Positions 6,671 through 48,881 of a DNA stretch of 64,000 nt are shown piece by piece. The notes under the pieces were generated by a model. The model was not told the origin of the DNA, made no database searches, and saw only the letters and a program-made list of their open reading frames with translations. Position 1 is the first letter of the stretch; each line of letters starts with the position of its first letter. Where the stretch lies: NCBI GenBank assembly GCA_052327205.1, contig CM126209.1, forward strand, positions 82,894,001 to 82,958,000. The letters run 5' to 3'. Origin of the DNA: Somniosus microcephalus (lineage: Eukaryota). The position numbers and the translations under genes were made by a program.

Positions 6671-6723
6671 TTAACCTTTGGACTATGTTTCAAGCAGCCC
6701 AAAATCTAGGAGGGTACGAAGCG
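6671..6723 (+). CDS. ARID5B: ARID5B coding exon (exon 7 equivalent, 53 nt), ARID domain
   Basis: Pyrimidine tract with ccaacag acceptor and GCG|GTAAGT donor. With the upstream phase-1 A it reads INLWTMFQAAQNLGGYEA. Not in the ORF track. Confidence 0.96.
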
Positions 6724-8730: not shown

Positions 8731-10968
8731 TTCTCAAAAATGTTAATCTGATAGTGAATAGAATGTCACAATCTAAGTAGTTTTAGCTTCAGGCTCATTT
8801 ATAAATATATTTAGCAACAGTATTGTACACAAGGAAAATTATGTTTGCTTTGTGCGCAACCAGTGAAGAATTTGTAATGTGTGAATTCATACACATTAAT
8901 ATACCACCAGTTTATTAATAATCTAAAAACCTACTTCATAATTGAATTCTAAATATTATTTACAGAAAGTAGAAAACATAATTGCAGGAGAACAGATGCA
9001 AGAAGCAGCATTGTTTCGGAAAACACACTCTTTTGTATATTTTAATAATAGCAGTCCCTGTCACCTAGGTTTCCATTACAGCTTTTAGTAATGAAATTCC
9101 ATTGAAGATTGCACTCTGCAAAAGCCCATTTTCTCAACATGATACACTGTTCTCATACAGGGCTTTTATGCAAATCAGGCAGCAGTGGAGCTGGGTTTCC
9201 CCTTTGTGTGAGCCCTTTTGAATATGTAACTCAAGTGTACAGTAGTTGTGTCTTCCAAAAATGAAATGAGTACATTAACTAGCAACAGTGTGCAGTGTAA
9301 CTGCAAATCAAGGAGAGACAAACTGAAATATAAAGAGAATGTTTTGTAACAGAATCCCGACACTGTACAACACTAAGAGTGCATTGGTTTTCTGTTCAGT
9401 CATTTCAGTCGTTCTTACGTTACCGAAGCTTGCACACGATTCACGAAGCTTGCATACTCCAGGTGTACGATTGGAGCAGAGCAGCTGTGGCTCCGCACCC
9501 ACGCTAAGTGAGTGTTGTGTGAATCGGGTGTCAGTGCCCGAACTGACCCCGAAGTGAAGCACGTTGCGCCTCTCCCTCCACCAGGGAGACTTGCGCCACT
9601 TTCTTCCAGTGTCCGCTCAGGCGCTGACGCTGGAGTCAGGCTGCGAACAAAACTACTTCACACCGACACTACCGTCATTCGAGTGTAAATGGGAGCCTTT
9701 TTCACCTTCGCTGCTTGAGGGGCTAAACCGGCAAATCTCCCCTCCTACCGCAGCCTACCCCAAACCATTATAGAACCTGCCCAAATTTCATTTCTGTTGA
9801 AATCTGTGCCAATGGAAACACAGGCGCGTTCTATATCGGGCGCGTACAGTCCAAACACAAACTTTTGTTCGGCCTTGATTTGCTAATGTTTCCAGACACG
9901 CTGGTGCAGGCCGGGCGCTGCCACAGATGGTGCGCAGTGAGAGACGAGGCAGAAAGGATTCACATGCCTGTTCCGTTCATGGGAATAACGTTTTGTATCG
10001 TCAATTTTTTCACGCCAGTCGGGTGATCATATGGAGCGGAATTGTACACTTTGTGATCGCTTCAGTTTTAAACCAGCTGCAAGCAGCCCAGGCGATGCCT
10101 TCCTGGGCTCGGCCATGTCGCCGGAGGTGGGTGGTGAGCAGTGGCCCACCGCGAGAGAAGGGCTGTTGGTGGACGGGTAACCCGAACTTGCTCACGCCTG
10201 GGCCCCCCCCCCCCCCAACCCCTGGCCATTCATGCAGGGAGCAGCATCAGCACAGGCACGGAAACAAGTTGCCCTCAACACAGGGATGGTGCACGGAATA
10301 GGAGAAGTGGGAACGGAGGGGAAATTAGATTTTGGAAATCAAAGATTGAATAGAACTGGGGGAAAAAATACATTCTTCTGGAATAAACAGATTTTTTACA
10401 GGCACGTGAATCCCTGTTTCGCTCCCTTGATTCAGGGCTTTTGGGATAGTTCAGATTGCTGGATTTTAGAAAGAAAGACTTGCATTTTTATAGTGCCTTT
10501 CATGACCACCGGACGTCTCAAAGTGCTTTTCAGCCAATGAAGTACTTTTGAAGTGGAGTCACTGTTGTAATGTTTTACATGACTCCTGTCAGTGCACTCC
10601 TAGTTGGTGAGCAGGAGATGGGCTTGGAGTGGGGAGAGGAGGATCCCACTGTTTCCTGTAATATCCAGCGAGGGCATTATATAGGCTAGCACGCCTGGAA
10701 ACTGGCAAAATGCCCCCAAAGTAAGTGGGCGGTGGCATTCAAATGATAGTGGAGGTTGGAATTGAACCTCAAGAACCCCCGGATTATTCCACCCGTGTCC
10801 TACCGAGTCTGCACCTAATGCAGGATTTTAAAAACAATGTTCTGGGTAAATCGGGTGTCTGTGCGTTACATCAGGGATGATTGGTCACGCACTGGTTACG
10901 CTGTCCAGGGATAGAAGTGTAAATCCCAGGCTACCAACTAACGCCAGCTTTCACTGTGATTGTGACAG

Positions 10969-11066
10969 ATAACCGCACGTCGACAGTGGAAGCAGATTTA
11001 CGATGAATTAGGCGGCAACCCTGGCAGCACCAGTGCAGCGACGTGTACTCGCAGGCATTACGAGAG
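10969..11066 (+). CDS. ARID5B: ARID5B coding exon (exon 8 equivalent, 98 nt), ARID domain
   Basis: tgacag acceptor and GAG|GTAAGA donor. Reads ITARRQWKQIYDELGGNPGSTSAATCTRRHYE(R), the ARID5 signature. Phase 0 in, phase 2 out. Confidence 0.97.
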
Positions 11067-11244
11067 GTAAGAGGCTGATCATTGGGGTGGAAACGCACTC
11101 CCTTGCGGGCCTTGGTGTTCGGGACTCTCCACGCCGATATTTGTAGAGTCATAATGGATTTCAGAAATACTCCAGCATGAAATTCGAAAAGATTTCTATT
11201 TTGTTACCTTCATGGTGGGATTGCTTCAATCGTGAAACCACTGA

Positions 11245-14200
11245 GGGATACTTGCAATTTGCCACCGGAATTAACTGGTTATAGAAACTGCTTGATTTTT
11301 ATTTCCACAGATTTCAATGGAAGTGACATTCAGGCGGTTTCTGTAACGGGTGTCTGATCGGCAGCACTAGTGAATCCCGGGTATCTGATCGGCAGTGCTA
11401 GTTAATCCAGGGCACCTGACCGGCAGCGCTAGTTAATCCCGGGCATCTGATCGGCAGCGCTAATTAATCCCGGGCATCTGAGCAGCAGCGCTAGTTAATC
11501 CCGGGCATCTGATCCGTGGCCGTAGTTAATCCCGGGTGACTGATCCGTGGCGCTAGTTAATCCCGGGTGACTGATCTGAGGCTCTAGTTAATCCTGGGTG
11601 ACTGATCGGCAGCACTAGTTACCCCCAGGCAACTGATCAGCAGCTAGTTAATTACGGGTGACTGATCAGCAGCACTAGTTAATCCCGCGTGCCTGTTCAA
11701 CGGCGCTAGTTAATCCCAGGCGCCTGATCAGCAGCTAGTTAATCCTGGGTGACTGATCGGCAGCACTGGTTATTCCCAGGCGACTGATCCGTGGCGCTAG
11801 TTAATCCCGGGTGTCTGATCAGCAGCGCTAGTTAATCCCGGGCATCTGATCGGCGGCGCTAGCTAATCCCAGGCGTCTGATACGTGGCGCTAGTAAATCC
11901 CGGGTGACTGATCTGTGGCTCTAGTTAATCCCGGGTTACTGATCCGTGGCACTAGTTAATCACGGGTGACTGATCGGCAGCACTAGTTAACCTCAGGCGT
12001 CAATTCCATGGCGCTAGTTAATCCTGGGCATCTGATCAGCGGCGCTGGTTAATCCCGAGCGCCTGATCAGATAGTTAATCCCGGGTGACTGATCGGCAAC
12101 ACTAGTTAATCCCAGGCATCTGATCGGCCGCGCTAGTTAATCCTGGGTGTCTGATCGGCGGTGCCAGTTAATCCCGGGTGTCTGATCGGCGGCGCTAGTT
12201 AATCCCGGGTGTCTGATCGGCGGCGCTAGTTAATCCTGGGTGTCTGATCGGCGGTGCCAGTTAATCCCGGGTGTCTGATCGGCGGCGCTAGTTAATCCCG
12301 GGCGTCTGATCGGCAGCACTCGTTAATCCCGGGCATCTGATCGGCGGCGCTAGTTAATCCCAGACACATGATCAGCAGTGCTAGTTAATCCCGGGCATCT
12401 GATCAGCAGTGCTAGTTAATCCCGGGCATCTGATCAGCAGCGCTAGTTAATCCCGGGCATCTGATCGGCTGCGCTAGTTAATCCTGGGCATCTGATCGGC
12501 GGCACTAGTTAATCCCAGGCACCTGATTCGTGGTGCTAGCTAATCCCAGGTGACTGATCCGAAGTGCTAGCTAATTCCGGGTGACTGATCGGCAGCTCTA
12601 GTTAATCCTGGGTGCCTGATCGGCAGCACTAGTTAATCCCAGGTGTCTGATCGGCAGTGCTAGTTAATCCCAGGCGTCTGATCGGCAGCGCTAGTTAATC
12701 CCGGGTGTCTCATCGGTGGCGCTAGTTAATCCCGGGCACATGATCAGCAGCGCTAGTTAATCTAGGGCGTCTGATCGGCAGCACTAGTTAATCTCGGGCA
12801 TCTGATCGGTGGTGCTAGTTTATCCCGGGCATCTGATCGGTGGCGCTAGTTAATCCCGGGCATCTGATCGGCGGCGCTAGTTAATCCCGGGTGCATGATC
12901 AGCAGCGCTAGTTAATCCAGGGTGTCTGATCGGCACGCTAGTTAATCCCGGGCATCTGATCAGCAGCGCTAGTTAATCCCGGGCATCTGATCGGCACGCT
13001 AGTTAATCCCGGGCATCTGATCGGCTGCGCTAGTTAATCCTGGGCATCTGATCGGCGGCACTAGTTAATCCCAGGCGCCTGATTCGTGGTGCTAGCTAAT
13101 CCCGGGTGACTGATCCGAAGTGCTAGCTAATTCCGGGTGACTGATCGGCAGCTCTAGTTAATCCTGGGTGCCTGATCGGCAGCACGAGTTAATCCCGGGT
13201 GTCTGATCGGCAGCGCTAGTTAATCCCAGGCGTCTGATCGGCAGCGCTAGTTAATCCCGGGTGTCTCATCGGCGGCGCTAGTTAATCCCGGGTGTCTGAT
13301 CAGCAGCTAGTTAATCCCAGGTGACTGATCGGCAGCACTAGTTACTCCCGGGCATCAGATCGGCAGCGCTAGTTAATCCCGGGCATCTGATCGGCAGCGC
13401 TAGTTAATCTAGGGCGTCTGATCGGCAGCACTAGTTAATCCCGGGCATCTGATCAGCGGTGTTAGTTTATCCCGGGCATCTGATCGGCGGCGCTAGTTAA
13501 TCTTGGGCATCTGATCGGCGGTGCTAGTTTATCCCGGGCATCTGATCGGTGGCGCTAGTTAATCCCGGGCACATGATCAGCAGCGCTAGTTAATCTAGGG
13601 CGTCTGATCGGCAGCACTAGTTAATCTCGGGCATCTGATCGGTGGTGCTAGTTTATCCCGGGCATCTGATCGGTGGCGCTAGTTAATCCCGGGCATCTGA
13701 TCGGCGGTGCTAGTTAATCCCGGGTGCATGATCAGCAGCGCTAGTTAATCCAGGGTGTCTGATCAGCAGCGCTAGTTAATCCAGGGCGTCTGATCGGCAG
13801 CACTTGTTTATCCCGGGCATCTGATCGGGGGCGCTAGTTAATCCTGGGCGTCTCCTCGACAGTGCTAGTTAATCCAAGGTGATATATCGGCAGCGCTAGT
13901 TAATCCTGGGCATCTGATGGCAGCGCTAGTTAATCCCGGGTGTCTGATTGGCAGCGCGGTTAAATCCCGGGTGTCTGATTCGTGGCGCTAGTTAATCCCG
14001 GGTGACTAATCGGCAGCACTAGTTAATGCCAGGCGTCTGACCCGTGGCGCTAGCTAATCCCGGGCATCTGGTCGGCGGCGCTAGCTAATCCCGGGCATTT
14101 GATCGGCGGCGCTAGTTAATTCCGGGCATCTGATTGGCGGCGCTAGTTAATCCCGGGCGTCAGATCGGCAGCGCTAGTTAACCCCGGGTGTCTGATCAGC

Positions 14201-17200
14201 GCTAGTTAATCCTGGGCATCTGATCGGCAGCGCTAGTTAATCAGACGTCTGATCCACGGCCGTAATTAATCTCGGGTGACTGATCGGCGGCACTAGTTAA
14301 TCCCAGGCATCTGACCCGTGGTGCTAATTAATACCGGGTGCCTGATCGGTGGCGCTAATTAATCCCGGGTGACTGATGCATGGCACTAGTTAATCCCGGG
14401 TGTCTGATCTGCAGCGCTAGTTAATCCCGGGTGTCTGATCGGCAGCGCTTGTTAATCCTGGGTGTCTGATCGGCTGCGCTAGTTAATGCCGGGTGATTTA
14501 CCAGCAGCGCTAGTTAATCCTGGGCATCTGATCAGCGCTAGTTAATCCTGGGTGTCGGATTGGCAGCGCTAGTTAATCCCGGGCGTCTGATCGGCAGCGC
14601 TATTTAATCCCGGGCATCCGATCTGCAGCACTAGTTAAGCTCGGGTGTCTGATCGGCAGCGCTAGTTAATCCCGGGTGTCTGATCGGCAGCACTAGTTAA
14701 TCCCGGGTGTCTGATCGGGGCACTAGATAATCCTGGGCGTCTGATCGGCAGCGCTAGTTAATCCAGGGCATCTGATCAGCAGCACTAGTTAATCTCGGGC
14801 ATCTGATCGGCGGTGCTAGTTAATCTCGGGCATCTGATCGGCGGAGCTAGTTTATCCCGGGCATCTGATCGGCGGCGCTAGTTAATCTCGGGCGTCTGAT
14901 TGGCAGCACTAGTTAATCGCAGGTGTCTGATCGGCAGCGCTAGTTAATCCTGGGCGTCTGATCAGCAGCGCTAGTTAATCCCGGGTGTCTGATCAGCAGC
15001 ATTAGTTACTCTTGGGCAACTGATCAGCAGCTAGTTAATCCCGGGTGTCTGATTGGCTGCGCTAGTTAAGCCCGGGCATCTGATCAACAGCGCTAGTTAA
15101 TCCCGGGTGTCTGATCGGCAGTGCTAGTTAATCCCGGGCGTCTGATCGGCAGCGCTAGTTACTCCCGGGCATCTGATCTGCGCCGCTAGTTAATCCTGGG
15201 TGTCTGATCAGCAGCTAGTTAATCCCGGGTGACTGATCATCAGCGCTAGTTAATCCCGGGTGACTGGCAGCACTAGTTACTTCTGGGCATCTGATCGCCG
15301 GCGCTAGTTAATCCCAGGTGTCTGATCAGCAGCGCTAGTTAATCCCGGGTATCTGTCGGTGGCGCTAGTTAATCCCGGGCATTTGATCTGCGGCGCTTGT
15401 TAATCCCGGGCATCTGATCTTCAGCGCTGGTTAATCCCAGGCGTCTGATCGGCAGCGCTATTTAATCCTGGGTGTCTGATCAGCTGCGCTAGTTAATGCT
15501 GGGTGTCAGTTCAGCAGCGCTAGTTACTCCCGGGCAAATGATCAGTGCCACTAGTTAATCCTGAGCATCTGATCAGCAGCGCTAGTTAATCCCGGGCATC
15601 TGATCTTCAGCGCTGGTTAATCCCAGGCGTCTGATCGGCAGCGCTAGTTAATCCTGGGTGTCTGACTGGCAGCGCTAGTTAATCCTGGGTGTCTAATCGG
15701 CTGCGCTAGTTAATGCCGGGTGTCCGATCGGAAGCGCTAGTTAATCCCGGGCATCTCATCGACAGCGCTAGTTAATCCCAGGTGATTTATCGGCAGCGCT
15801 GGTTAATCCTGGGCGTTTGATCAGTGCTAGTTAATCCCGGGTGTCTGATCGGCAGCGCTAGTTAATCCCGGGCATCTGAGCGGCAGTGCTAGTTAATTCT
15901 GGGCATCTGACCGGCAGCGCTAGTTAATCCCGGGCATCTGATCTTTGGCGCTAGTTAAACTGAGGCATCTGATCAGCAGCGCTAGTTAATCCCGGGTGTC
16001 TGATCGGCAGTGCTAGTTAATCCCAGGTGACTGATCGGCAGCACTAGTTAATCTCGGGCATCAGATCAGCGGCGCTAGTTAATCCCGGGCGCCTGATCAG
16101 CAGCTAGTTATTCCTGGGTGTCTGATCCGTAGTGCTAGTTACTCCCGGGCATCTGATCGGCGACACTAGTTAATCCCGGGTGTCTGATCAGCAGTGCTAG
16201 TTAATCCCGGGCATCTGATCGATGGCGCTAGTTAATCCCAGGCATTTGATTGGCGGCATTAGTTAATTCCGGGCATCTGATCGGCAGTACTAGTTAATCC
16301 CAGGTGATTGATCCGTGGTACTAGTTAATCCTGGGTGACTGATGGGCAACACTAGTTAATCCCAAGCGTCTGATCCATGGTGCTAGTTAATCCCGGGTGT
16401 CTGATCAGTGCTAGTTAATCCCGGGTGACTGATCGGCAGCACTAGTTACTCCCGGGCATCTGATCGGCGGCGCTAGTTAATCCCGGGTGTCTGACCAGCG
16501 GTGCTAGTTAATCCCGGGCATCTGATCGATGGCGCTAGTTAATTCCGGGCATCTGATCGGCGGCACTAGTTAATCCCGGGCGTCTGATTGGCAGCGCTAG
16601 TTAATCCCGGGTGTCTGATTGGCAGCGCTAGTTAATCCTGGGCGTCTCATCGGCAGCACTAGTTAATCCTGGGCATCTGATCTGCAGCACTAGTTAAGCC
16701 CGTGCGTCTGATCGGCAGTGCTAGTTAATCCCGGGCATCTGATTGGCAGCGCTAGTTAATCCCGGGCATCTAATCGGCAGCGCTAGTTAGTCCTGGGCGG
16801 TTGTTCCACTAGTTAATCCCGGACGTTTGATCCCTACCGCTGGTTAATCCCGGACGACTGATCAACAATGCTAGTTAACCCCGGGTGTCTCATCCACAGC
16901 GCTAGTTAGTCCAGGGCGTCTGATCAGCAGCACTAGTTAAGCCCGGACATCTGATCGGCAGCGCTAGTTAATCCCAGGTGACTGATCGGCAGCGCTAGTT
17001 AATCCCGGGTGTCTGATCGGGGCACTAGTTAATCCTGGGCGTCTGATCCAAGCGCTAGTTAATCCCGGGCGTCTGATTGGCAGCGCTAGTTAATCTTGGG
17101 AGTCTGATCCACAGCGCCAGTTAATCCCAGGCGTCTAATCGGCAGCGCTAGTTAATCACGGGTGTCTCATCAGCAACACTAGTTAATCCCGGGCATCTGA

Positions 17201-17643
17201 TCGGCAGCGCTAGTTAATCCCAGGTGTCTGATCGGCAGCACTAGTTAATACGGGCGTCTGATCGGCAGCACTAGTTAAGCCCGGTCGTCTGATTGGCAGC
17301 GCTAGTTAATCCTGGGCGGTTGTTCCACTAGTTAATCCTGAACGTTTGATCCCTAGCGCTAGTTAATCCCGGGTGTCTGATCCACAGCGCTACTTAATCC
17401 CGGGCGTCTGATCGGCCGCGCTAGTTAATCCCGGACAACTGATCAACAATGCTAGTTAACCCCGGGTGTCTCATCCACAGCGCTAGTTAATCCCGGACGT
17501 CTGATCAGCAGTGCTAGTTAATCCCGGGCATCTGATCCACAGCGCTAGTTAATCCCGGGCGTCTAATCGGCAGCGCTAGTTAATCCTGGGTGTCTGATCG
17601 GCAGCGTCAGTTAACCCCGGTGGCAAATTGAAAGTCTACTCCC
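11245..17643. mobile_element. MITE-like non-autonomous DNA transposon (possibly PIF/Harbinger) enclosing the 31-bp array
   Basis: Inverted termini gggatacttgCAATTTGCCACCGGaattaactg (11245-11277) and cagttaaccCCGGTGGCAAATTGaaagtctactccc (17608-17643), with a perfect 14-bp core. Confidence 0.75.
11345..17616. repeat. 31-bp minisatellite array, about 200 copies (consensus CTAGTTAATCCCGGGYRTCTGATCGGCAGCG)
   Basis: Directly visible tandem periodicity over ~6.3 kb in ARID5B intron 8, with no ORFs. Confidence 0.98.
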
Positions 17644-18784
17644 ATTATGTTCTTTGAAAGCTTTGTGCAGCACCAATCATTCTGAGTGCATCTTCGGTGT
17701 TTGATACAAGCCCGAGTTAACATCAGCTACCTCTGATTGTATTAAAAGGGATTTCATTACTGTGTTTCTTTCTGGTGAGCTACAGTCACATCAGACATAA
17801 AGACAAACAGCTCCTATTTGAAGCTGATAGATTGGCCTGATTTAGTGATCCTCCCCCCCCCCCCCCCCCCCCCCCCTTAGAAAAGCAGCGACTAAATATG
17901 TGGAAGCTACTGATTCAGGCTTTGCTACAGCACTTTAAAATGATTAAGTGGGGGCAGTGCATTGTCGGGCTGAATTGCGCTCAGTTTCAGAACCTGCACA
18001 GCATAATGTTTATTTTCAAGTGGATTATTTTGCATTCTCTGCAGAATAAATTCATTTGATTTTTCTATCTTGTGATGTGGTCTTGGATGCTGGATGGAAG
18101 CTTTTATTTTAAGCAAAGCAGGAATAATTTAATGCTGATGATTTCACTGATGTCCCTCAGGCTTTAACTGGTCCAAGCCTGCCTCTAGTTTGTTTTAATT
18201 CAAATCAGCTCAGATATTTTATAAGCAAATGTCTTAGTCAGCCTTAATTCACTCAGAAACTATCCATCACTGTCAGAATTTAATAAAAATTACCAGTCAC
18301 TTGGCTAAAGTTCTTCACTGCTCCAAATTTAATTAGTTGGATTACTGATGATTAACTGTAAAATCAGTGTTGATGCAGTTCTCTCTGTGAGGCTCTGCTA
18401 AGAGTGTGTTTAAAGTTAATTTTATTCAGGCCTATAATTAGGTTGTAAACATGGATCTGTTTGAGTTAATTTAAAAGACACAGACAGTATCTGCAAACTA
18501 TTCAAGGGATCTGTAATCAGCAAGTGGACTGTGAAGTTCAGCAGGATAAAAAAAAACTCCTTTATTTAGAACGTTAAGAGAACCTTCAGAGTATGAGGAT
18601 CTCTTGCTGCGCACCGCATCTTAAAATTGAAGACGGGATAATTCTCCCCGCATGTCTAGAAGCTGGCGCATTCTTCCCCTGTGTTGGCCAGCCGAGCTAT
18701 CTGCCCGTCTGAGCAATACAATGGGGTAGGTTTTCAACTTGCTGCCGAGCCTAAAACATTTGGTAGTGTATCGGAGAATTAAAC

Positions 18785-19797
18785 TGTAAGATTATGTGGC
18801 CATCTCCTAGTAGTAAGATAGAACCTACCTCAGATAGTCATTAGAACCCCGGAGCAGGCTGCGGAGACACAGGTACCGAGAGCCCGGGGGGACCCTGCAC
18901 CCCGCGGGTCAGAGTGCTCGGGGTCACAGTGTCCAGGGTTGGTGCGTGTTTGAATTGGCCTCTTCCTCCAGTGGTTATTGTCTTAATATGTTTCGCTGGT
19001 CCCACTTTATAAATAGCAGGCCCCAGAGCCTGAGCCACAGTTACATTGTTGGCTGAGGTGAGATTTCTCTCTCACCCGGGACCCTACTTCAGATCCTGGT
19101 CAGAGACGGTCCGGTGCTAAGCGCGCTCTCCCTGCTTCGGGCGGCCCGCTCGCTCCCGCAACCGGAGCGAAGTGTTCGGCGAGTCGGGCGGAGGCAGTGC
19201 AGCGCAACGAGCAGCAGCCACGACGACCCGCTAGAGCACGTCGGCCGGCAGCTCCTCGGCGGGAAGTCATTCCGACTGGGAGGAGGGGAGCCAAGCATGG
19301 CGGCCAGAGGCCGGACCGTGAGCGGGAGAAGCAGGCCCCGGGCCGTCGGACCGTGGAGCCGGCGACGGCGAGGAGGAGGCCGCGGCGACCAGAGCATTTA
19401 CATTCCGACTATGTGTTCGGCGAGTCGGGCGGAGGCAGTGCAGCGCAACGAGCAGCAGCAGCAGCCACGACGACCCGCCACAGCATGTCGGTCGACAGCT
19501 CCTTGGCGGGAAGCTCGCAGTCTGACTGGGAGGAGGGGAGTCAGGCATAGTGGCCAGAGGTCGGATCGTGAGCGGGAGAAGCAGGCCACCACACATGGAG
19601 CCGGCAACAGTGAGGAGGAGGCCGCAGTGACGAGGAGGATGGAGCGGCTGAGGGACATCGTGCTCCAACTGCCACTGGATGCCATTGATTTGACTTTCTG
19701 AACACGGCGCTGTAAGAATAGCTGACGTGTCCCTACGGGGGGAGTAAGCCTTCCATTGTACTAGTTACATATGGCAAATAAAATTGAATTGAGAACA
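18785..19797 (+). mobile_element. Unclassified GC-rich LTR-like or DIRS-like insertion with an internal ~180-bp direct repeat
   Basis: CpG-rich island in an AT-rich intron with TG..CA candidate ends. TATAAATA at 19008 and AATAAA at 19777. 19172-19348 is repeated at 19414-19587. No TSD found. Confidence 0.45.
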
Positions 19798-20269
19798 GGC
19801 CATAACAGGCTAAAAGGAGCTTTTTCAGTAAACAAGATCTGTTATTATATTAAAACAGGAGTGAACCTTCCTGACTGGTAGACAGTTGCGTGCTTCACTG
19901 CCAATTAGTAATGTCAGATCTGAACTTATAAAAATACATACAAGTTACAACATAGAAACGAGCCATTAGACCCAACTATCCCTGGTAAAACAGGGCCAGA
20001 TACGAATTGTTGAATGGTTTTATTTTGCAGACAGCAAGTGAACGTATAGAACAACCACTTTGCTTGTACTCACTTAATTCAATCAGTCCAACTTGTCTTC
20101 ATGTAATAATACAGAACAATGAACACGTTACATTTCTCCACATCATTGGGTCGTCTTACTACCTTCCTCATTCTAGTAGCTTTCTGGTGGTCAGTGTGTG
20201 TTCCTGCCCCTGTTTTATATCCCTGTGCCTACAACCTGAGGAGAAGACCAATATCAGATCGCCCTCATA

Positions 20270-20453
20270 CAAAAAGAAAATACCGCAGATGCTGGAAATC
20301 TGAAATAAAAACAGAAAATGCTGGAGAAACTCAGCAGGTCAGGCAGCATCTGTGAACAGAGAAACAGCGTTAACGTTTCAGGTTGCAACTCTGTTTCTCT
20401 CTTCACAGATGCTGCCTGATCTGCTGAGTTTCTCCAGCATTTTCTGTTTTTAT
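20270..20453. repeat. Long inverted repeat (fold-back) element, probably Penelope-derived
   Basis: Arms at 20305-20371 and 20387-20453 are near-perfect reverse complements. A single-arm relative lies at 55640-55768. Confidence 0.8.
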
Positions 20454-20871
20454 ATCCAATAGCCCTCGCCGAGTTCCTGGGACAATGGGGGGAGGTGAGG
20501 TGTTTACCACATAGAATTTACAGCACAGAAACAGGCCATTCAGCCCAACCAGTCCATGCTGGTGTTTATGCTCCACTCGAGTTTATCAGTTACTGAGACA
20601 GGCTGGTGAATTGCTTATTATTTATAGCCTTTGGGGAAACAATTTCAGGGTCCAGCTCATCAGCATTTTAACCAACTTTAGTCTTCTCGGTGCCTTTTCA
20701 AAAAAAACTTGCATGAATAAACTTTGTTTTAAAACACAACCCAGAAATGTAACTCTTCCCCCCCACCCACCCCCCTTCAAAAAAAAAAAAAAAACCCTTG
20801 CTGTGGAAAAATGGTCAAAGAATCCCTAAATGTGACCGATGGATATTTACATTTTGAAATGATGGGTATTA

Positions 20872-21212
20872 GCAGCCTAGAGGTCGTGAGTATAAACCCC
20901 ACTATGACAAATCACAAAGCTGAATTGAATAAATCTGGTGTTTTGAGCGCTGGCAGTCAGAATAATGGTCTTGTGGATTGTCGCAAGAACCCAATTGGTT
21001 CGTTAATATCCTTCGGGGAAGGGAACCTGCCGCCCTTACCCAGTCTGGCCTACAAGTGACTCCAGTTCGCCGCTATGTAGTTAACTCTTAATGCCCTTTT
21101 GAGGTATCCTATCAAGTCACTCGTTTGTAAAACAACCGCCACCATTTCTCAAGGGCAACTAGGGATGGGCAATAAATGCCGGCCTTGCCAGCGACGCCCA
21201 CATCCCGAGAAC
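20872..21212 (+). mobile_element. Second SINE-like family, with a gggcaataaatgccggccttgccagcgacgcccacatccc tail
   Basis: Homologous minus-strand copies at ~3843-4140 and ~24050-24160 within the window. Confidence 0.7.
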
Positions 21213-21913
21213 ACATTAAAAAAATTTTTTTTTTAATTAGTTCACTTTGGACTGCAGGAAATTCTGGAATTGCCCAGTAATGAATTTTTCACTCATAGAA
21301 AATAATTAACTGCAATTTCAGTGTTAAGAAAGTGAGTTTTTTTCAATCGCCCCAACTGTCTGTCGCTGTTGCAGGGGCAGCATTTTTAAATAATGGGACT
21401 TGGGACAGATTAGTTACAAGACCTGTGGATAGCCTCTCTATTCCCCCTCTTATCCTGACAAAAGCTTTCACAGAGGAGAATAATCTTGTTTCCACACTGT
21501 AATCTTTAGGTGGGATCTGACCAAGGTGTGTTAAGATAAAGCCAATGATTTCCTCCAGAAACTTCATCAGGACAGATCGACGGAGATATTTTTCTCAAAG
21601 TATCCCAAGCCTGACTTAAACAGGGGAAAGAAAGCTGGTTAATACCAAAATGTTAGTTAGGTGACTTTCTCATCAATGTGTCATGTTAATGGATTAATAA
21701 TAAAAGGATGACCTGCGCTGATTATTTTTCAAAAGAAAATATCATATTAACATCCTTGCGGCAAAATCCTGAGAATTAGTGACCACCACAGACTTTTTTT
21801 TGAATTACTGAGGAGTCTCAATGCCACAGATCATCAATATTAATTCACCTCTGGAACAGGCATTCAGATCCAGTGTGGACAGATGGAATGAAAGTGCCTT
21901 ATCTTTGATTAGG

Positions 21914-22332
21914 TGTCAGCTGTGCCTTTGTGGTGGCACTCTCGCCTCCGAGTTAGAAGTTTGTGGGTTCAAGCCCCATTCTAGAAACTTGAGCCCATAA
22001 CCCCTGCTGGCACTCCAGCGCAGTACTGAGCGCGTGCGGCACTTAGAGGCACCATCTTTTGGATGAGATGTTAAAACTGTCCTCTGAGGCGGATGTAAAA
22101 GAGATGGGGAGTTCTCCTCAGTGCCTTGGCCAATATTTACCCCTCAACCAACACCACTAAAAACAGATTGTCTGGTCATTTAACATATTGTTGTTTGTTG
22201 GATCTTGCTGTGCACAAATTGGCGGCCTAATTTTGCAACAGTGACCACACTTCAAAAGTACTTCAGTGGCTGTAAAGAGATTTGCCACCTGCTGAGGTCG
22301 TGAAAGGCGCTTTATAAATGTAATTTCTTTCT
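21914..22332 (+). mobile_element. SacSINE1-like SINE
   Basis: Colinear similarity with the 5326 copy, including B box and tail. Confidence 0.8.
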
Positions 22333-24927
22333 AAGCGATATAAAAATCACTTCTTCCTGAATAAAATATTTTTAATCTGCTGCATTGGAAAGTACCTCTA
22401 AGAAGGGTTAACGAATAACAGCGAAGAAGTTACTCATTGTCATCTGTTTTTTACATGCTAGATAGTGATTGGCAGAATGCCAAGCTACAGATAGTAATGT
22501 ATTTTGTTAATCTTTGGTCCAGTACTGCAGTGAAAGATCCAACAAGAAATTAATTTGAATTGCTGACTACTACAATTCTGGTATTTTGCAGTGTCTGAAT
22601 CCCAAAATGATGAACACAAGTTGCTTCAATAAACAATTGCTCCAACTAATTTAAAGCAGAGCGTGGCACTCTATCCAGCTCTGTTCATATTACAGTCACC
22701 TTACCCCAGTAAGAAGTCAGTAAAAAATGCACCTGAGGAACATCTCTCCGAATTTACTCATTGCCAAAGTCATAACACTCACAATTCACAAATCGGACAG
22801 AATATGCTCCTCACTCTCTAGCGTTTTTTGCTGGGCTGTAGTTACTAAAGGAAACTCGGGCTGGGTTTTCACATGACCTGTTTTTCAGAGAGGCATTCGA
22901 GGATGGTCAGAGTTTTGTTGAATGTTTCCCGAGATTCTCATTAACAGGATAGTCGATGGATACTCTTGTAATGCAATAGTTCAAAGGGCAGCGATGTGAC
23001 CAGTGGTCAGTGTCCTAAGTCCAGGTGGGTTCACCGATTGTCAAAGCAAATGGCACCATCATCGTGCGGTCCGTGCAGTGGAAGGGCTGAGCAATGTTTT
23101 CACTCTACGAGTTTTTTTCCAACTCCTTTGAGCATTGTTTTTTTTTAAGCTTGGCTCTTGCCCTTGTGAGGTGGATCACCTGGTCCATCACATGCTATTT
23201 CAATGGTGTGTCAATACATTTCTATTGCGATGTAGCACTCTCCTTGTGTAGTGTTTTATTCACACTGGAAGTTGGGTCCTTGAGTGTAGTCTAAGCTCTA
23301 CTTAGAACATTTAATAATTATATTATTATATCAACAACCCTTCACATTGTACCTGAGGACTTGCTTATTTTGCACCTTGATGGATTAAATAAAGCATTGT
23401 TTATAAAATATGGGTCAAGTATCAGAATACATTATAGCTTTGAGCTATTTCCATGAAGCCAGGCTGTCATTAGATATGATGTTCCTGTAGATTGATCTCG
23501 GCTCCATCTCACCATAGTAACTATGCCAGTTTTGTATCTGCACAGTGTTTGAGATGCTATAAATCAGTTTTACCAACCCCAACAGTATTTGAAAATGTGG
23601 GATGTTAACACACCTCAATTCTTTGAACCCCTTTGGTAATTCCAGTTGAGTATATTTAACCAAAAATACTGTTTCTTCTCCAACTACATTTTTTTAAATG
23701 TGTGCAGTTTTCGTGCTACCTACCAGTTTTGTTGTGCCTTTTAAAAAAATTATTTCTGGTTTGGCAGGAGCTTTCAAACAAGTCTATACGAATGTGATTC
23801 TACCCATTGGAAGTTTCATTCTGGTTTTAAACTGCAACGTAGCATTTGGTGGGTTGGATTGAAGCAGGTGGTAATGAGTGAAAACTGCAGAACACACACT
23901 GTAACTAGGTATATGGGTGCATGTCTGATCCTCCCATTGTGTTAACATTTAAACAGCATTCAAATCTCTCTCGCACAACATTTTTCCTTTTGAAATATTT
24001 AGCCCACGTACAACGTTAGGGTCTTCTGTGTTTTTCTTATTTGTTCATGGCATGTCGCTGGCAAAGCTGGCCTTTATTGCCCATTGCTGGTTGCCCTTGA
24101 GAAGGTGGTGGTGAGCCTTCTCCTTGAACCGTTGCAATCCTTGTGGTGAAGGTGCTTCCACGACAGTGTTGGGGAATATACTAAGTTACACATTTTCCAG
24201 AAGTGAGGGTTCTTGCACTTGTGCTTTCCAACAAACAGTTGGTCATCAAAGTCATAACTAGAATTGTTTTGAAAGCTGCACAATGTCTAAAAACAAGGCT
24301 GAATTAGAATTTCCCATTTTCTCCCCTGTGCATCACAAGCAGAGGACCTGTTTCCTGCACTTTATGGAGCTGCCCTGATTTAACATACTTTTGGCCAGAA
24401 CATCATTTCTGGAGGACTGTGTGAGGGACGGCTGGTTTCCTGGGAAAAGAGACATTATTTGAGTGTGCCCTGTAAGGGGTCAGTTACCTCAGCAGTTACA
24501 CGGAGAGCAAATGATGGTTGGGAGTGAGTTACTGGACTGTAATTCACTAGTAGGGATCGGATTACATAATAAAGCGGGAGAGCCAAGCTCAATCAGTTTA
24601 CGCCATCAATTTTTTGAACCCCAGACTATCCTTCAGCTACGGCTATGTTCTGGAACTCCACGTCTTAATAGAGCCCAGTTTCATTTACCTTTTCAGGGCT
24701 TTATCATTAGCCTCATCACAGTTTTAATCATCACAGCTTTTTAACAGCCCCATGTATATTTTTATAGAGCTGTGTATCACATGACAGGAAGCGGGTGTTT
24801 TATGACACAATGCAGTGCAGGGTTAATAATGGGATTAGATGACAGGAAAAAGGAGAGCCTTGCTGACAAATCATTTTTATTAAACCGAGGACACGAGTTG
24901 GGCAACTAGTATAAAATGACTAAAGAC

Positions 24928-25350
24928 TAAACAGGCTGGGGCTCTTTTCTCTAGTACAGAGAAGACTGAGTGAGGGGTGACCTGATAGAGGTCTTTAAAA
25001 TGATGGAGAGGTTCGATAAGGTAGACGTAGAGAAGATGTTTCCACTTGTGGGGGAGTCCAAAACTAGGGGTCATAAATACAAGATCGTCACTAATAAATC
25101 CAATAAAGAATTCAGGAGAAACCTCTTTACTCAAGAGTGTGGTTAGAATGTGGAACTCGCTACATCATGGAGTGGTTGAGGCGAATAGCATAGATGCATT
25201 TAAGGGGAAGCTCGATAAACACATGGAGAAAAGAATAGAAGGATATGCTTACGGGGTTAGATAAAGTAGGGTGTGAGGAGGCTCTTGTGGAGCATAAACA
25301 CCAGACCAGTTGGGCCGAATGGCCTGTTTCGGTGCTGTAAATTCTATGTA
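24928..25350 (+). mobile_element. CR1 LINE 3' fragment
   Basis: GDLIEVFKM and VVRMWNSL..SIDAFKGKLDKHM remnants, with tail gggccgaatggcctgtttcggtgctgtaa. Confidence 0.85.
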
Positions 25351-28300
25351 AAATATAATGTTTTTTCCTCCATTTTGCCCACAGCAGAGTATCACTTCTA
25401 ACTGGGTTATGTGGCACTGTGTCACTTTGTATCATTCTACTCTCTCCCTTAAATATTTGTTTCCCTGCGGTCTGTTACACAAATTGAGGCTATTGATTTT
25501 TATCAAAGCTTAAAAAAATCTAGCAAACAATGATGCCTTAGTAAAAGCAGCAACCCAATCAATGTTGATCAATTCCTGTCTTCCTGGATCTGTTGTTCTT
25601 CGAGCTATTTCTTTGAAAAAAGCTTGAATTGATTGATTTCACAGCCAGCAATGATTTATTTCTACCCAATTTTATAGCTGTCGTAATAGGCGCTGAACCT
25701 GTTACTGTTGCCATTCATGAAACGTCAATGCAAAACAGACAATTATAGTGCAACGTGACAAGGACACAGCTGTTGCTATGTAATATGTTCAGGCAGCAAC
25801 AAAATAACAGTTGCAAGGACCGGTAGAACAGTAATTTTCACCAAACAGAGCTCTGTTCCTGATATTCAGCAGGAGTTGCAAAGCAGAATAATGATATGAT
25901 GTGTACTGTCAGCATTCTTCATGTAATGGCTGGTCGAGGGAAAGTTTACGACTGTGGAGAATTTAATGAGTGTTTGTGCTATTTATGTGAAGTAATATAT
26001 CATGTTTGTTCAGCTGCTGTCACCGTTAGCAGCGCAACCGGAAAAATTGATGTTTTGTTTATTCCCCCCCACCTCTCCAAATTCCATTGCCACTGTGCCT
26101 ATTCTAAAATAAAACATCATGCCTGTATGAAGCAGATATCAGCATTTGAAATCAATCCAGATTCGGTGTTTGCACCTCAGAAGGATGTCGCCTTTTGATT
26201 GCCCGTAGCTCGGTGCAGTCGGAATGTAAGGCTGTGTCGAATTCTTAAAATCAGTGCTGTGGAAGAGGCACATGCAAAAAGTGAATATCGACAGTTTTGG
26301 AATTGTGTTCAGCTGTTGTTTTCATTGTAGCCTTGCCAGTAAGTGTTTAGACTGTTTCCTCCAGTTTCTAGATAAAATGTTTAGCAGAAGGAAAATAAAT
26401 TATGTTCACATTCACTTAAAAATCTAAACAAAACTTATCTTTAAAAGCTCAGACGTAGAATACGTCTCGAGTTACAGGTTGGAATGCCCTTTGAACCTCG
26501 GACAGCTCCTCTCTCTACCCCCACCCCTCCAAACCAGTATATACATTATTTTCCACAGGCGCACCGCCTTAAAGAGGTTGAGTTGGTGAATTTGTCTTGC
26601 TATTTGGAGAACTTTAGCCCTCTTTACTGAATCTAATACATACAGGGAGGCAATATGTGAAACGGCCCATTTATATTGCTGTACACTATATTTCTGGGCC
26701 TGGTACAGAGGCAAATAGTCAGGATTAACAGTAAACGGAAGTTTGTGCATTTAAAAGGCAGTGGTTCAGAGAGGGTTTTTTTAAGTTTAAATCAAATCGC
26801 AAGAGCATTCTGCTGTTTGTACTTTGTGACTTTTTTCTTTGCCTTTTTTTTTGATGGTGAAATTTATGATCCAACCTGCCTCTCAGAAACAGCAACAGAT
26901 TAGTCCGGATATCAAAAACAAAACTGATAGTCTGGAACAAGCAAATCTTGTGTTTTGATTCCGATTTTACCTTAGTCATGACTCTACAGATACAAGGAAC
27001 ATTTAATTCTAGATTTCCTGCAGCTGGCAGAAGGACTCCAGCCCAGCTGTGTTAAATGTATTTTTACCCTTGTCTCACTGCCAGCTTCTGAGCTCTGTGA
27101 AAAATAAAATAAAATTAAATGTTTCACGTCCCAGCTGAACTGTTAAGAGATTTAAAAGGGAAGTTGTAACCATAGGCACCTAATTTGCTAATCAACATAA
27201 TGAGCTTTTTCTTTTATTTTGAAGAGGGGCTTGTATTTCAGAAGGGGGTGGGGGGGAGACATTTTCAGAAATCTCCATAGATGGGAACGTGGAAAGAATG
27301 TTGGGTCATTAATCTTGTCGAGTCTCATCTCGCTGAATTTTTAAGATTTCCATTCTGGTTCAGAGACTCGGGTTTAGTGGAAAAATGTTCACACGGTACA
27401 ATTTTTTTATTAAATGACCTCAAATCGATTACATCGCCGCAGATCACGAGTGCAGCGCATCACTGTTTCCAAGAGGCTGGTAATTCTGTTATACAAAGGG
27501 AAAGAACAGAAAGAGATGGGCCTTGCGTGCGGTGTCTGTCCGGACAGGGCGAGAGCATCAAGCCCTGCAGCCAACATAAACACATGGACAATGTGGTCGA
27601 TACCAGTTTGCAGCGTTGCTGAGTGTTGGTGCTGTTAGTGAGCTGGAGGTTCGGTCACTGCTCCTCTCCGTGTTATTTGTCATCTTTGCTCAGCATCCTC
27701 AGAGCGGTTTTTTTTTAAAGAGCCCTTCTAAATTCTACACTTAGCTGTTCAGTGTCGTTTATCATCGTTCTTGCACCACTCCTTTTTAGTCATTAGATTT
27801 ACAGTGTGTGAGCAAGAGATCGCACAGGATGGAGATCACTGCAAGAAATACTGTTTTCTTTTTGCCTCTCACATTTAATGGAACTTAATGCGAGCCAAAT
27901 TACTATCCAGTGCATTAATGTGTTATTCATTATGTAAACGTTACTATAACATTACTGCAGGGAGTAGGAATTTGGCCGGTGCTCATTATTTTGGTATCAG
28001 TGTGCGTTTCCAGTACTCAGAAAGAACTCCTCCTCCTCCTCCCCCCCCCCCCCGTTTTAGCAGCTGCAACATATTTAAACATTCCTTGTAATGGCATCTA
28101 ATGATAAATATACCCCGTGGTCTTGAACTGAAGCCTTGTCGCTGGCAAGCTGCCCTGCCACTGGCAGTGAAAGCTCGTTCATGCCCCCTTCTGCACGGAG
28201 AATGGGAACTCATTTCCACGCTGGTAATATCTGTGCTCCGGAAATAAAATATTTGCAGGAATGACATGGTTAGCTTTCCCATGTTGGAAAAGATCAATAC

Positions 28301-28841
28301 TTTCTCGGATGGAGTGCTGCTGTATTGTTTCATTATATATTGCTATTTAAAGCCCAACATTGTTTAATGGCAAAATAGATTTCTGACTGACTTGGAGCCA
28401 CGAGTTAATATTTTTATAATTGCTTCGGTCGAACTTTAATCCCTCTCAGACCCATTAATGATCGCAATCCTTAGATACCAAGCAGAATTTCTACCACATC
28501 CCCATCCTGCTCTCTCCCGAGTGTAAAAGGGCTGAATTCACAAGACCAAACAAAAGTCTGTCTTGTGGTCTCATATTGATTTTCACCATCACTTTGCCTC
28601 CCAGTGACCAAAAGCAGGAAAACCGCCGAGAATGCAAAGTATTCTACAAGTCGATGCAGTCTGGTGTGTTTCTCTGAAAGAGAGCATCTCTTCCCTCCCT
28701 CCCCCACACACAACCCTTGGCTTGGCGTTAGTTTTGTTTTTTACAATAAAGGACGTGCAGCTAAGAGTGAGGGTGGACTGACTGACTGGCGTGTTTGCAC
28801 CGAGTTTCTCCCTCATCGAGTGTGTTTCTCGGCTGTTGCAG

Positions 28842-29040
28842 GCTGATCCTGCCCTACGAAAGATACATCAAAGGGGAAGAAGACAAGCCGCTGCCTCCAG
28901 TCAAGCCTCGAAAACAGGAGAACAGCCCCCAAGAGAGCGACAGCAAGATGAGGGCAGCTGGAACCAAACGGAAGAATGAACAGAACAGAAAAATGAAAAA
29001 AGAAAGGGAGACCAGCCAGAAAGTGAAAGAGTACTCTGAG
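28842..29040 (+). CDS. ARID5B: ARID5B coding exon (exon 9 equivalent, 199 nt), end of ARID domain plus basic region
   Basis: ttgcag acceptor and GAG|GTTAGT donor. Reads (R)LILPYERYIKGEEDKPLPPVKPRKQENSPQE...KVKEYSE, in phase with both neighbouring exons. Confidence 0.96.
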
Positions 29041-29417: not shown

Positions 29418-30865
29418 TGTGGTGGTTTGGTGTGCACTAGTGCCATGTGGTTTGTGCACTATTGCCGTGTGGTTTGTGCACTATTGCCGTGTGGTTTGTG
29501 CACTATTGCCATGCGGTTTTGTGCACTATTGCCGTGTGGTTTGGTGGGCACTATTGCCGTGTGGTTTGGTGGACACTATTGCCATGTGGTTTTGTGCACT
29601 ATTGCCGTGTAGTTTGGTGTGCACTATTGCCGTGCGGTTTGTGCACGATTCCTGTGCAGTTTGGTGTGCACTATTGCCGTGCGATTTGGTGGGCACTATT
29701 GCCGTGTGGTTTGGTGGACACTATTGCTGTGTGGTTTTGTGCACTATTGCCATGCGGTTTGGTATGCACTATTGCCGTGTGGTTTGGTGGACACTATTGC
29801 CGTGTGGTTTTGTGCACTATTGCCATGTGGTTTGGTGTGCACTGTTGCCGTGTGGCTTGTGCACTATTGCCGTGCGGCTTGTGCACGATTCCTGTGCAGT
29901 TTGGTGTGCACTATTGCCATGCGGTTTGGTATGCACTATTGCCGTGTGGCTTGTGCACTATTGCTGTGCAGTTTGGTGTGCACTATTGCTGTGCAGTTTG
30001 GTGTGCACTATTGCCATGCGGTTTGTGCACTATTGCTGTGCAGTTTGGTGTGCACTATTGCTGTGCAGTTTGGTGTGCACTATTGCCATGCGGTTTGGTA
30101 TGCACTATTGCCGTGTGGCTTGTGCACTATTGCCATGTGGCTTGTACACTATTGCCATGTGGCTTGTGCACTATTGCCATGCGGCTTGTGCACTATTGCC
30201 GTGCGGCTTGTGCACTATTGCCATGCGGTTTGGTATGCACTATTGCCGTGTGGCTCGTGCACTATTGCTGTGCAGTTTGGTGTGCACTATTGCCGTGCGG
30301 TTTGTGCACTATTGCTGTGCAGTTTGGTGTGCACTATTGCCGTGTGGCTTGTGCACGATTGCCGTGCGGTTTGTGCACTATTGCCGTGCGGTTTGTGCAC
30401 TATTGCCGTGTGGTTTGTGCACTATTGCCGTGTGGTTTGTGCACGACTGCCGTGCGGTTTGTGCACTATTGCCGTGCGGTTTGTGCACTATTGCCGTGCG
30501 GTTTGTGCACTATTGCCGTGCGGTTTGTGCACTATTGCCGTGCGGCTTGTGCACTATTGCTGTGCAGTTTGGTGTGCACTATTGCCGTGTGGCTTGTGCA
30601 CTATTGCCGTGTGGCTTGTGCACTATTGCCGTGTGGCTTGTGCACTATTGCCGTGCGGTTTGTGCACTATTGCCGTGCGGCTTGTGCACTATTGCTGTGC
30701 AGTTTGGTGTGCACTATTGCCGTGCGGTTTGGTGTGCACTATTGCCATGCGGCTTGTGCACTATTGCTGTGCAGTTTGGTGTGCACTATTGCCGTGCGGT
30801 TTGTGCACTATTGCCGTGCGGCTTGTGCACTATTGCTGTGCAGTTTGGTGTGCACTATTGCCATT
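29418..30865. repeat. 22/25-bp minisatellite (GTGCACTATTGCCGTGTGGTTT[GGT]), about 60 copies, with degenerate copies to ~31090
   Basis: Visible tandem repeat in ARID5B intron 9. It accounts for the three overlapping Cys-rich ORFs. Confidence 0.97.
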
Positions 30866-48403: not shown

Positions 48404-48881
48404 GGTGTTACGTGATATAAGTTATAGAGTGTAACTGCGATTTGCTGAGCTTTGACATCAGCCGAGCAAGGTTAATTTTCAGTGGTCAAAACTAATAGTC
48501 GCTAAGAAAAGAACATAAGCAATTGGAGCAGGAGTGGACCATACGGCCCCTCGAGCCTGCTCCGCAAACAACTTGGATTTCTATAGCCCTCCCCACATAC
48601 AGGAAGCTGTCTGAAATCACACTTAAGAGGAATAGGGTGAGGAGATAATCGAATGAATATCATCCTGAACATATAATTTTGGGACACAATCATTTCCTTG
48701 CTCCTTCAACCTCAAGCCATTCTGCAGAACTTCCCATTTCAAGATGCTACTCAGAATTCGGTTGAAGTCAATGTAAAAGAATGTTGGGCGGGGTGTAAAA
48801 CGGGCTGCCAATTCGCTATCGCAAGCTTTTCGTTACTGCCCAAGGCAAATTTCAGCCCCAGAATATCCATTCATTCAGGAG

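Follow-up and report, generated by a model that had tools for sequence, protein, structure and literature searches.

A 31-bp minisatellite inside a palindromic MITE of an ARID5B-like intron, probably born between short direct repeats

Minisatellites have been described as starting from a segment of DNA that lies between short (5-10-bp) direct repeats (Haber and Louis 1998, as cited in the relevant passage of PMC6947457). Minisatellites derived from Alu elements are stated to arise by this short-direct-repeat route in sections of PMC3389668, which also record hotspots of tandem duplication within transposons (AluS, LTR12). In Xenopus, the MITE tandem repeats Xstir (in Xmix) and miDNA4 have spread and become satellite families, according to passages of PMC9659126 and PMC6947457. 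Regarding the elements themselves, target duplications of 3 bp are given as typical of Harbinger in a section of PMC9179366, where no Harbinger is recorded for the elephant shark and other cartilaginous fish are left open, and a table of PMC9033116 enters AWT as the target of PIF/Harbinger MITEs. A search of the literature returned no publication on transposon-derived minisatellites of chondrichthyans and none on the element described here, although its family may already be named in Repbase or Dfam. In this report, we describe an intronic array of Somniosus microcephalus and conclude that it is very probably an old single-locus minisatellite within a dead palindromic MITE, begun through slippage or an unequal crossover at direct repeats spaced 33 bp from each other and extended by unequal exchange.

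The window, that is the whole stretch of 64,000 nucleotides analysed, carries exons of an ARID5B-like gene on its forward strand. An ARID-domain exon at 6671..6723 was read from the sequence as NLWTMFQAAQNLGGYEA, flanked by AG and GTAAGT. A second ARID-domain exon at 10969..11066 matches ARID5B residues 51-83 and is followed by its donor GT at 11067; its peptide (P0001) is identical to human ARID5B (PDB 1ig6) at 32 of 33 amino acids (E 5e-18). The match of P0001 to the Pfam ARID model (E 5e-4) stays under the gathering score because the piece is only 33 amino acids long. The next ARID5B-like exon begins at 28842 (its first part lying in 28842..28995, forward strand; ARID5B residues 83-107, E 1e-9), and the intron between them, 11067-28841 (17.8 kb), encloses both the MITE and the minisatellite. 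The MITE starts 176 bp after the donor of exon 10969-11066, in agreement with the distance of about 180 bp given in the initial annotation, while the minisatellite (11347-17620) makes up 35% of the intron and lies 280 bp from the donor. Another minisatellite (22/47-bp period, 1.4 kb) was seen at 29424-30862, about 600 bp past the start of exon 28842, and an inverted repeat at 20302-20456 (70 bp, 94% complementary, 15-bp loop) is likely another small MITE.

The locus was compared with contigs from 6 of 14 short-read runs, which provided the junction contigs and three relatives, designated A, B and C; these contigs break at the repeat. Analysis of the window using TRF detected the array at 11347..17620 (forward strand) with period 31, 204.1 copies, 80% matches and a score of 6625. 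Anchor spacings within it were exactly 31 bp in 178 of 202 cases, and the roughly 200 copies of a 31-bp unit first reported are therefore real. The 14-bp inverted core claimed at the two ends (11255-11268 and 17617-17630) forms an exact reverse-complement pair, and 25 of 28 positions match when it is extended. A 21-nt pattern over this core had two matches in the 6.45-Gb genome, both of them these termini (control, 0). The inverted repeat is thus genuine, but it is not the short terminal repeat that had been supposed; it comprises the whole 93-bp arm of a palindrome with its centre near 11312/11313. Alignment to a 186-bp family consensus placed the left arm at 11243..11312, where 20 bp are missing from the segment whose right-arm counterpart was amplified. 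In the same alignment, the right arm runs from the centre to the first short direct repeat over 11313..11346. The right terminus, past the second short direct repeat, lies at 17621..17643, and in relatives A and C tandem units adjoin it. The start of the MITE at 11243 is backed by variants of relative A. A possible left target-site duplication, ACT at 11240..11242, differs by one mismatch from ATT at 17644-17646, and relative A has ACC at the left site. The central stretch of the MITE matched many genomic loci in BLAST searches, several of them on both strands. Short-read contigs of the same sequence cross both junctions with 0 differences (X12, 10700-11430; X13, 17590-17850), which argues against a join artefact, with the reservation that the assembly may have been built from these contigs.

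A BLAST query of 151 bases from the left end, with 40 of its 77 candidates scored, gave at least 46 matches, some of which lay on both strands at one place. The family consensus, built from 26 aligned loci with L011, L018 and L027 left out, is a non-coding, end-to-end palindrome of 186 bp with no spacer. Compared with its reverse complement, it shows 12 mismatches, 10 of CpG type and 2 at the centre. A 26-nt arm pattern had 636 matches in the genome (control, 0); since only 7 of 85 sampled family arms pass this pattern, the family must comprise several thousand copies or more. In 260 kb of unselected DNA, 3 family-profile matches turned up, sister families counted in. Both ends were present in 37 of 57 mapped copies, and together with the arm matches this establishes the termini as those of a paired, dispersed MITE family, as originally proposed. 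An exact 3-bp target duplication was found in 8 of the 37 two-ended copies, where a mean of 1.5 was expected under the null (p 0.0002), and its flanks are AWT-like; in the same copies duplications of 2, 4, 5, 6 or 8 bp were not significant. On account of the 3-bp duplication, the family is likely of the Harbinger type. The window copy, minus its array, is identical to the family consensus at 128 of 158 positions. A partial copy of the same family lies at 9765-9842 of the window, 1.4 kb upstream, and a weaker match at 48759-48831 likely belongs to a sister palindromic family. A further sister palindromic MITE (L075:874-1035) has the same GGGGTAGA-type end and another interior, suggesting a group of related families.

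The origin of the unit can be read from the arm. Each MITE arm contains the word CGGGCGGC twice, at a distance of 33 bp (consensus 128-160), and the unit consensus aligns to this 33-bp segment at 30 of 37 aligned bases with a 2-bp gap. The alignment score of 40 compares with a maximum of 31 in 5000 shuffles (p < 1/5000), and the match spans from one CGGGCG to the next. The claim that the unit derives from subterminal sequence of the MITE was upheld by this alignment. Moreover, the array begins at the first direct-repeat word and stops at the second, and in the relatives it ends in a canonical unit followed by GGTGGCAAATTG. The unit thus corresponds to a parent segment between repeats of 5-10 bp, and the array is bounded by the same repeats, an arrangement in keeping with the short-repeat origin already described for minisatellites. 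A hairpin-prone unit was considered as the driver of growth and rejected; folding energies of trimers equalled those of shuffled units (z -0.05 to 0.5), and since the unit folds no better than shuffled ones (z 0.2 and -0.05), a hairpin does not explain the growth.

The following course of events is proposed. The 186-bp palindromic MITE lying past the ARID5B-like exon would have been inserted by a Harbinger transposase, as the target duplication of the family suggests. This copy then diverged, and the alignment shows that, among other changes, the segment became 2 bp shorter. A dimer probably arose through one duplication between CGGG(C/T)G words, as indicated by the phase of the units and by both array ends; replication slippage and unequal crossover would look alike on this evidence. 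The dimer would have grown into a long array, likely by repeated unequal exchange, before the split from relative C, in which units are seen at the orthologous right end. Since then, decay has prevailed in the array, with the observed loss of CpG and rare block duplications.

The state of the array is consistent with such a history. A degenerate unit pattern had 127 matches genome-wide, all 127 of which lay inside this array. BLAST with the unit found only this locus and one 24-bp array on C41, and the same query missed a related array on C6 described below. The C41 match was rejected as a related array, being an unrelated 24-bp repeat with no match to the MITE profile. Three unrelated minisatellites (43, 24 and 33 bp) occur there within 10 kb (L063, G000:C41:30152001-30162000), and a unit similar to the 33-bp one adjoins a MITE copy in L023. 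Divergence of the units from their consensus was 13.5% (27% at CpG sites and 8.6% elsewhere, or 5.4% minus three bimodal sites), and non-CpG divergence of the MITE copies was about 12.5%. None of the 204 units is identical to the consensus, 181 of the 204 are distinct, and the mean pairwise difference is 21%; the homogeneous monomers and multi-locus arrays of satellite concerted evolution are absent. CpG is retained at 388 of 798 array sites (49%) compared with 211 of 838 MITE sites (25%), and the array is therefore younger than the MITE insertion. Within 12454..13780 (forward strand), units 37-45 have been duplicated to 55-63, now 2.2% apart, and units 46-52 to 73-79, 1.4% apart, the latter block being exact over about 163 bp at a spacing of 833 bp. 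Three block duplications exceed the shuffled-order maximum of 48 (two scoring 86 and 66). As two of the blocks have diverged by just 1.4% and 2.2%, slow turnover continues. In 110 loci picked for intact arms or centres, none of the 105 family matches was overlapped by a tandem array with a period of at least 12, and the dispersal to many loci that marks a MITE-borne satellite was not observed.

Evidence on age was also provided by the relatives. The flanks differ at 33 of 653 and 8 of 232 positions in relative A (3-5%), and at 57 of about 460 and 23 of 221 in relative C (10-12%). In both, unit sequence is joined to the orthologous right terminus, and the array therefore predates the split from these relatives. 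In addition, a 61-bp unit contig of relative C reached a depth of 123.6, about 9-20 times that of the flanks (13.2 and 6.1), and relative B has a contig with tandem units. The left contig of relative C continues for 110 letters past 11342 with no first-unit match among the matches listed. Units of the relatives differ from the consensus at 1-7 positions in 42-62 bp. At a rate of 7e-10 per generation, taken from a passage of PMC10587355, the 10-12% flank difference corresponds to tens of millions of generations; this uncalibrated rate supports the conclusion that the array is old and no date.

Comparison of the array ends modified the view of the termini. The right terminus of the window copy does contain a variant of the repeat unit, as initially annotated, but this variant, CAGTTAACCCC, looks lineage-specific, the last unit in relatives A and C being the canonical-length TAGTTAAT. 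The left arm of relative A carries two other letters and one extra base inside the core, and since the perfect 14-bp match is absent there, the core arose late; from these alignments it is best regarded as a late coincidence or repair. One base per arm (11255-11277 and 17608-17630) was lost in the window lineage, and the arms have become more symmetric since the split from A, matching at 21 of 23 positions in the window versus about 19 of 24 in A, if the one unlisted difference of A lies there. Such symmetry could result from the decay of CpG sites and from slippage in G runs. Copying between the arms across 6 kb of array is a possible alternative. Its family-wide signal is weak, with 28 changes shared in 45 copies, just 1.4 times the level in between-copy pairs (p 0.03). 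A symmetric MITE subfamily behind the shared arm variants was rejected; three genome pattern searches, which gave 2 own matches plus 1 outside the family, 2, and 30, disclosed no such subfamily. The best candidate cluster, at C12:202.08-202.57 Mb, consists of segmental duplicates of one insertion, with the other arm free of the variants. This stretch (G000:C12:202.08-202.57 Mb; L118, L119, L130-L136) holds nine copies of one MITE insertion with duplicate flanks 82-92% identical, and likely represents a tandem gene cluster.

A second array was identified on C6. The family copy at G000:C6:218057769-218090754 (L146, L151, L152, L154, L155) spans 33 kb, retains both termini, and contains about 1,050 units of 25 bp (about 26 kb) from the same arm segment, interrupted by LINE-like and gypsy-like inserts. 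It shows one duplication at the same arm junction, followed by the 25-bp units, of which 957 are forward and 95 are inverted in 22 short blocks. Many of the inverted blocks have common junction letters and they likely go back to a template-switch inversion that was later duplicated. The first repeat on C6 has a canonical tail (TTTTA, not TTAAT) and the arm deletions are unlike those of the window copy; because of these two features, the C6 array likely represents an independent birth, as judged from sequence. Genome searches with the duplicated-junction pattern gave 0 matches at 1 mismatch and 5 at 2 mismatches, namely four ordinary arms and the C6 array. Two further tandem-pattern searches found no third array (0 matches in one; 6 in the other, being 4 chance matches outside the family and the 2 known arrays). 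Such junction and tandem searches can miss derived units, just as BLAST with the window unit missed C6. As the C6 copy duplicated the same junction, the arm segment is likely a weak hotspot for such births, with two cases in a family of several thousand copies or more.

A stronger interpretation can be attached to these two arrays. The 21-bp arm core may be a nursery of giant minisatellites that is determined by its sequence, with two independent births (6 kb and about 26 kb) that acquired the same two substitutions, amplification selecting the unit sequence, and with window arms that may still copy each other. We regard this as doubtful, though worth stating, because if it is true the thousands of unexpanded sister copies form a natural experiment on the birth and persistence of tandem repeats. 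The substitutions in question, A>G (in 8 of 84 family arms) and C>T (12 of 84), are shared by both unit consensuses and were noticed post hoc. They could also be invoked, along with the use of the same junction in both arrays, for descent of the window and C6 arrays from one duplication-bearing MITE copy that transposed. The first C6 units, however, keep the ancestral C, and the C>T change must therefore have arisen within the C6 array; arm deletions and unit tails differ as well, and the searches for the junction added no further copy, with no match at 1 mismatch and, at 2 mismatches, 5 matches of which one was real. Descent from one such copy is accordingly judged very unlikely.

Retention of the array for a regulatory or splicing role within the ARID5B-like intron was given a slightly lower probability, and we consider it very unlikely. 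The array persists across species, lies close to the donor, has a CpG observed/expected ratio of 0.96 (elsewhere in the window, 0.53), and is represented in the relatives by units near the consensus. Yet such consensus-like units are expected when the best of about 200 are picked, CpG sites have decayed three times as much as other sites, as expected for methylated neutral DNA, and the non-CpG divergence of the units (5.4-8.6%) is no smaller than the flank divergence to C counted per lineage (about 5-6%). Proximity to the ARID exon indicates no functional link, and the array is likely without function. Lastly, the initial view of the locus as a snapshot of satellite birth, in which a young satellite spreads with its MITE after the Xstir/Xmix or miDNA4 model, can draw on the MITE-derived unit, on the recent (1.4-2.2%) block duplications and on the related array on C6, but is largely refuted, and highly improbable, given the confinement of 127 of 127 unit-pattern matches to one array, the absence of consensus-identical units (0 of 204), orthologous units in relatives whose flanks are 10-12% diverged, the other period, canonical first repeat and different arm deletions of the C6 array, and the lack of tandem arrays over the 105 family matches in the chosen loci.

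The origin of this minisatellite, growth within a MITE from a segment between direct repeats, is well explained; it is a system of a known kind and reveals no new mechanism. Its value lies in an unusually legible record, which comprises the parent consensus, the direct repeats, thousands of unexpanded controls, orthologues and a second birth. The locus indicates that arrays of this kind can last long without spreading, and the 35% of the intron that it occupies illustrates one route by which introns lengthen in very large genomes.

Among known systems, as far as these are described in the passages cited, three offer comparison. The family resembles PIF/Harbinger (Tourist-like) MITEs such as Harbinger-N12A_XT (PMC12676858, PMC9179366, PMC9033116) in being small, non-coding and palindromic with a 3-bp AWT-type target duplication, and differs in forming one 186-bp palindrome without a spacer and in being known here from non-autonomous copies alone. 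With Xstir and miDNA4 it has in common a tandem repeat born in a vertebrate MITE, Xstir being likewise derived from an inverted-repeat region (PMC9659126, PMC6947457), whereas the 31-bp unit is confined to one locus, is decayed, and forms no satellite family. The closest likeness is to the transposon-derived minisatellites of Haber and Louis (1998) and Jurka and Gentles (2006), as presented in parts of PMC6947457 and PMC3389668, in which the unit also lies between direct repeats of 5-10 bp; as in minisatellites of the Alu type, growth took place at a single locus after insertion, and some regions of the element are more prone to it than others. In contrast to the Alu- and LTR-derived cases, the parent is a palindromic DNA-transposon MITE, not a SINE or an LTR. 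With 204 and about 1,050 units, the arrays are also longer than the 100 units that PMC6947457 names as the usual upper limit for minisatellites, and they persist across species, unlike those minisatellites as described.
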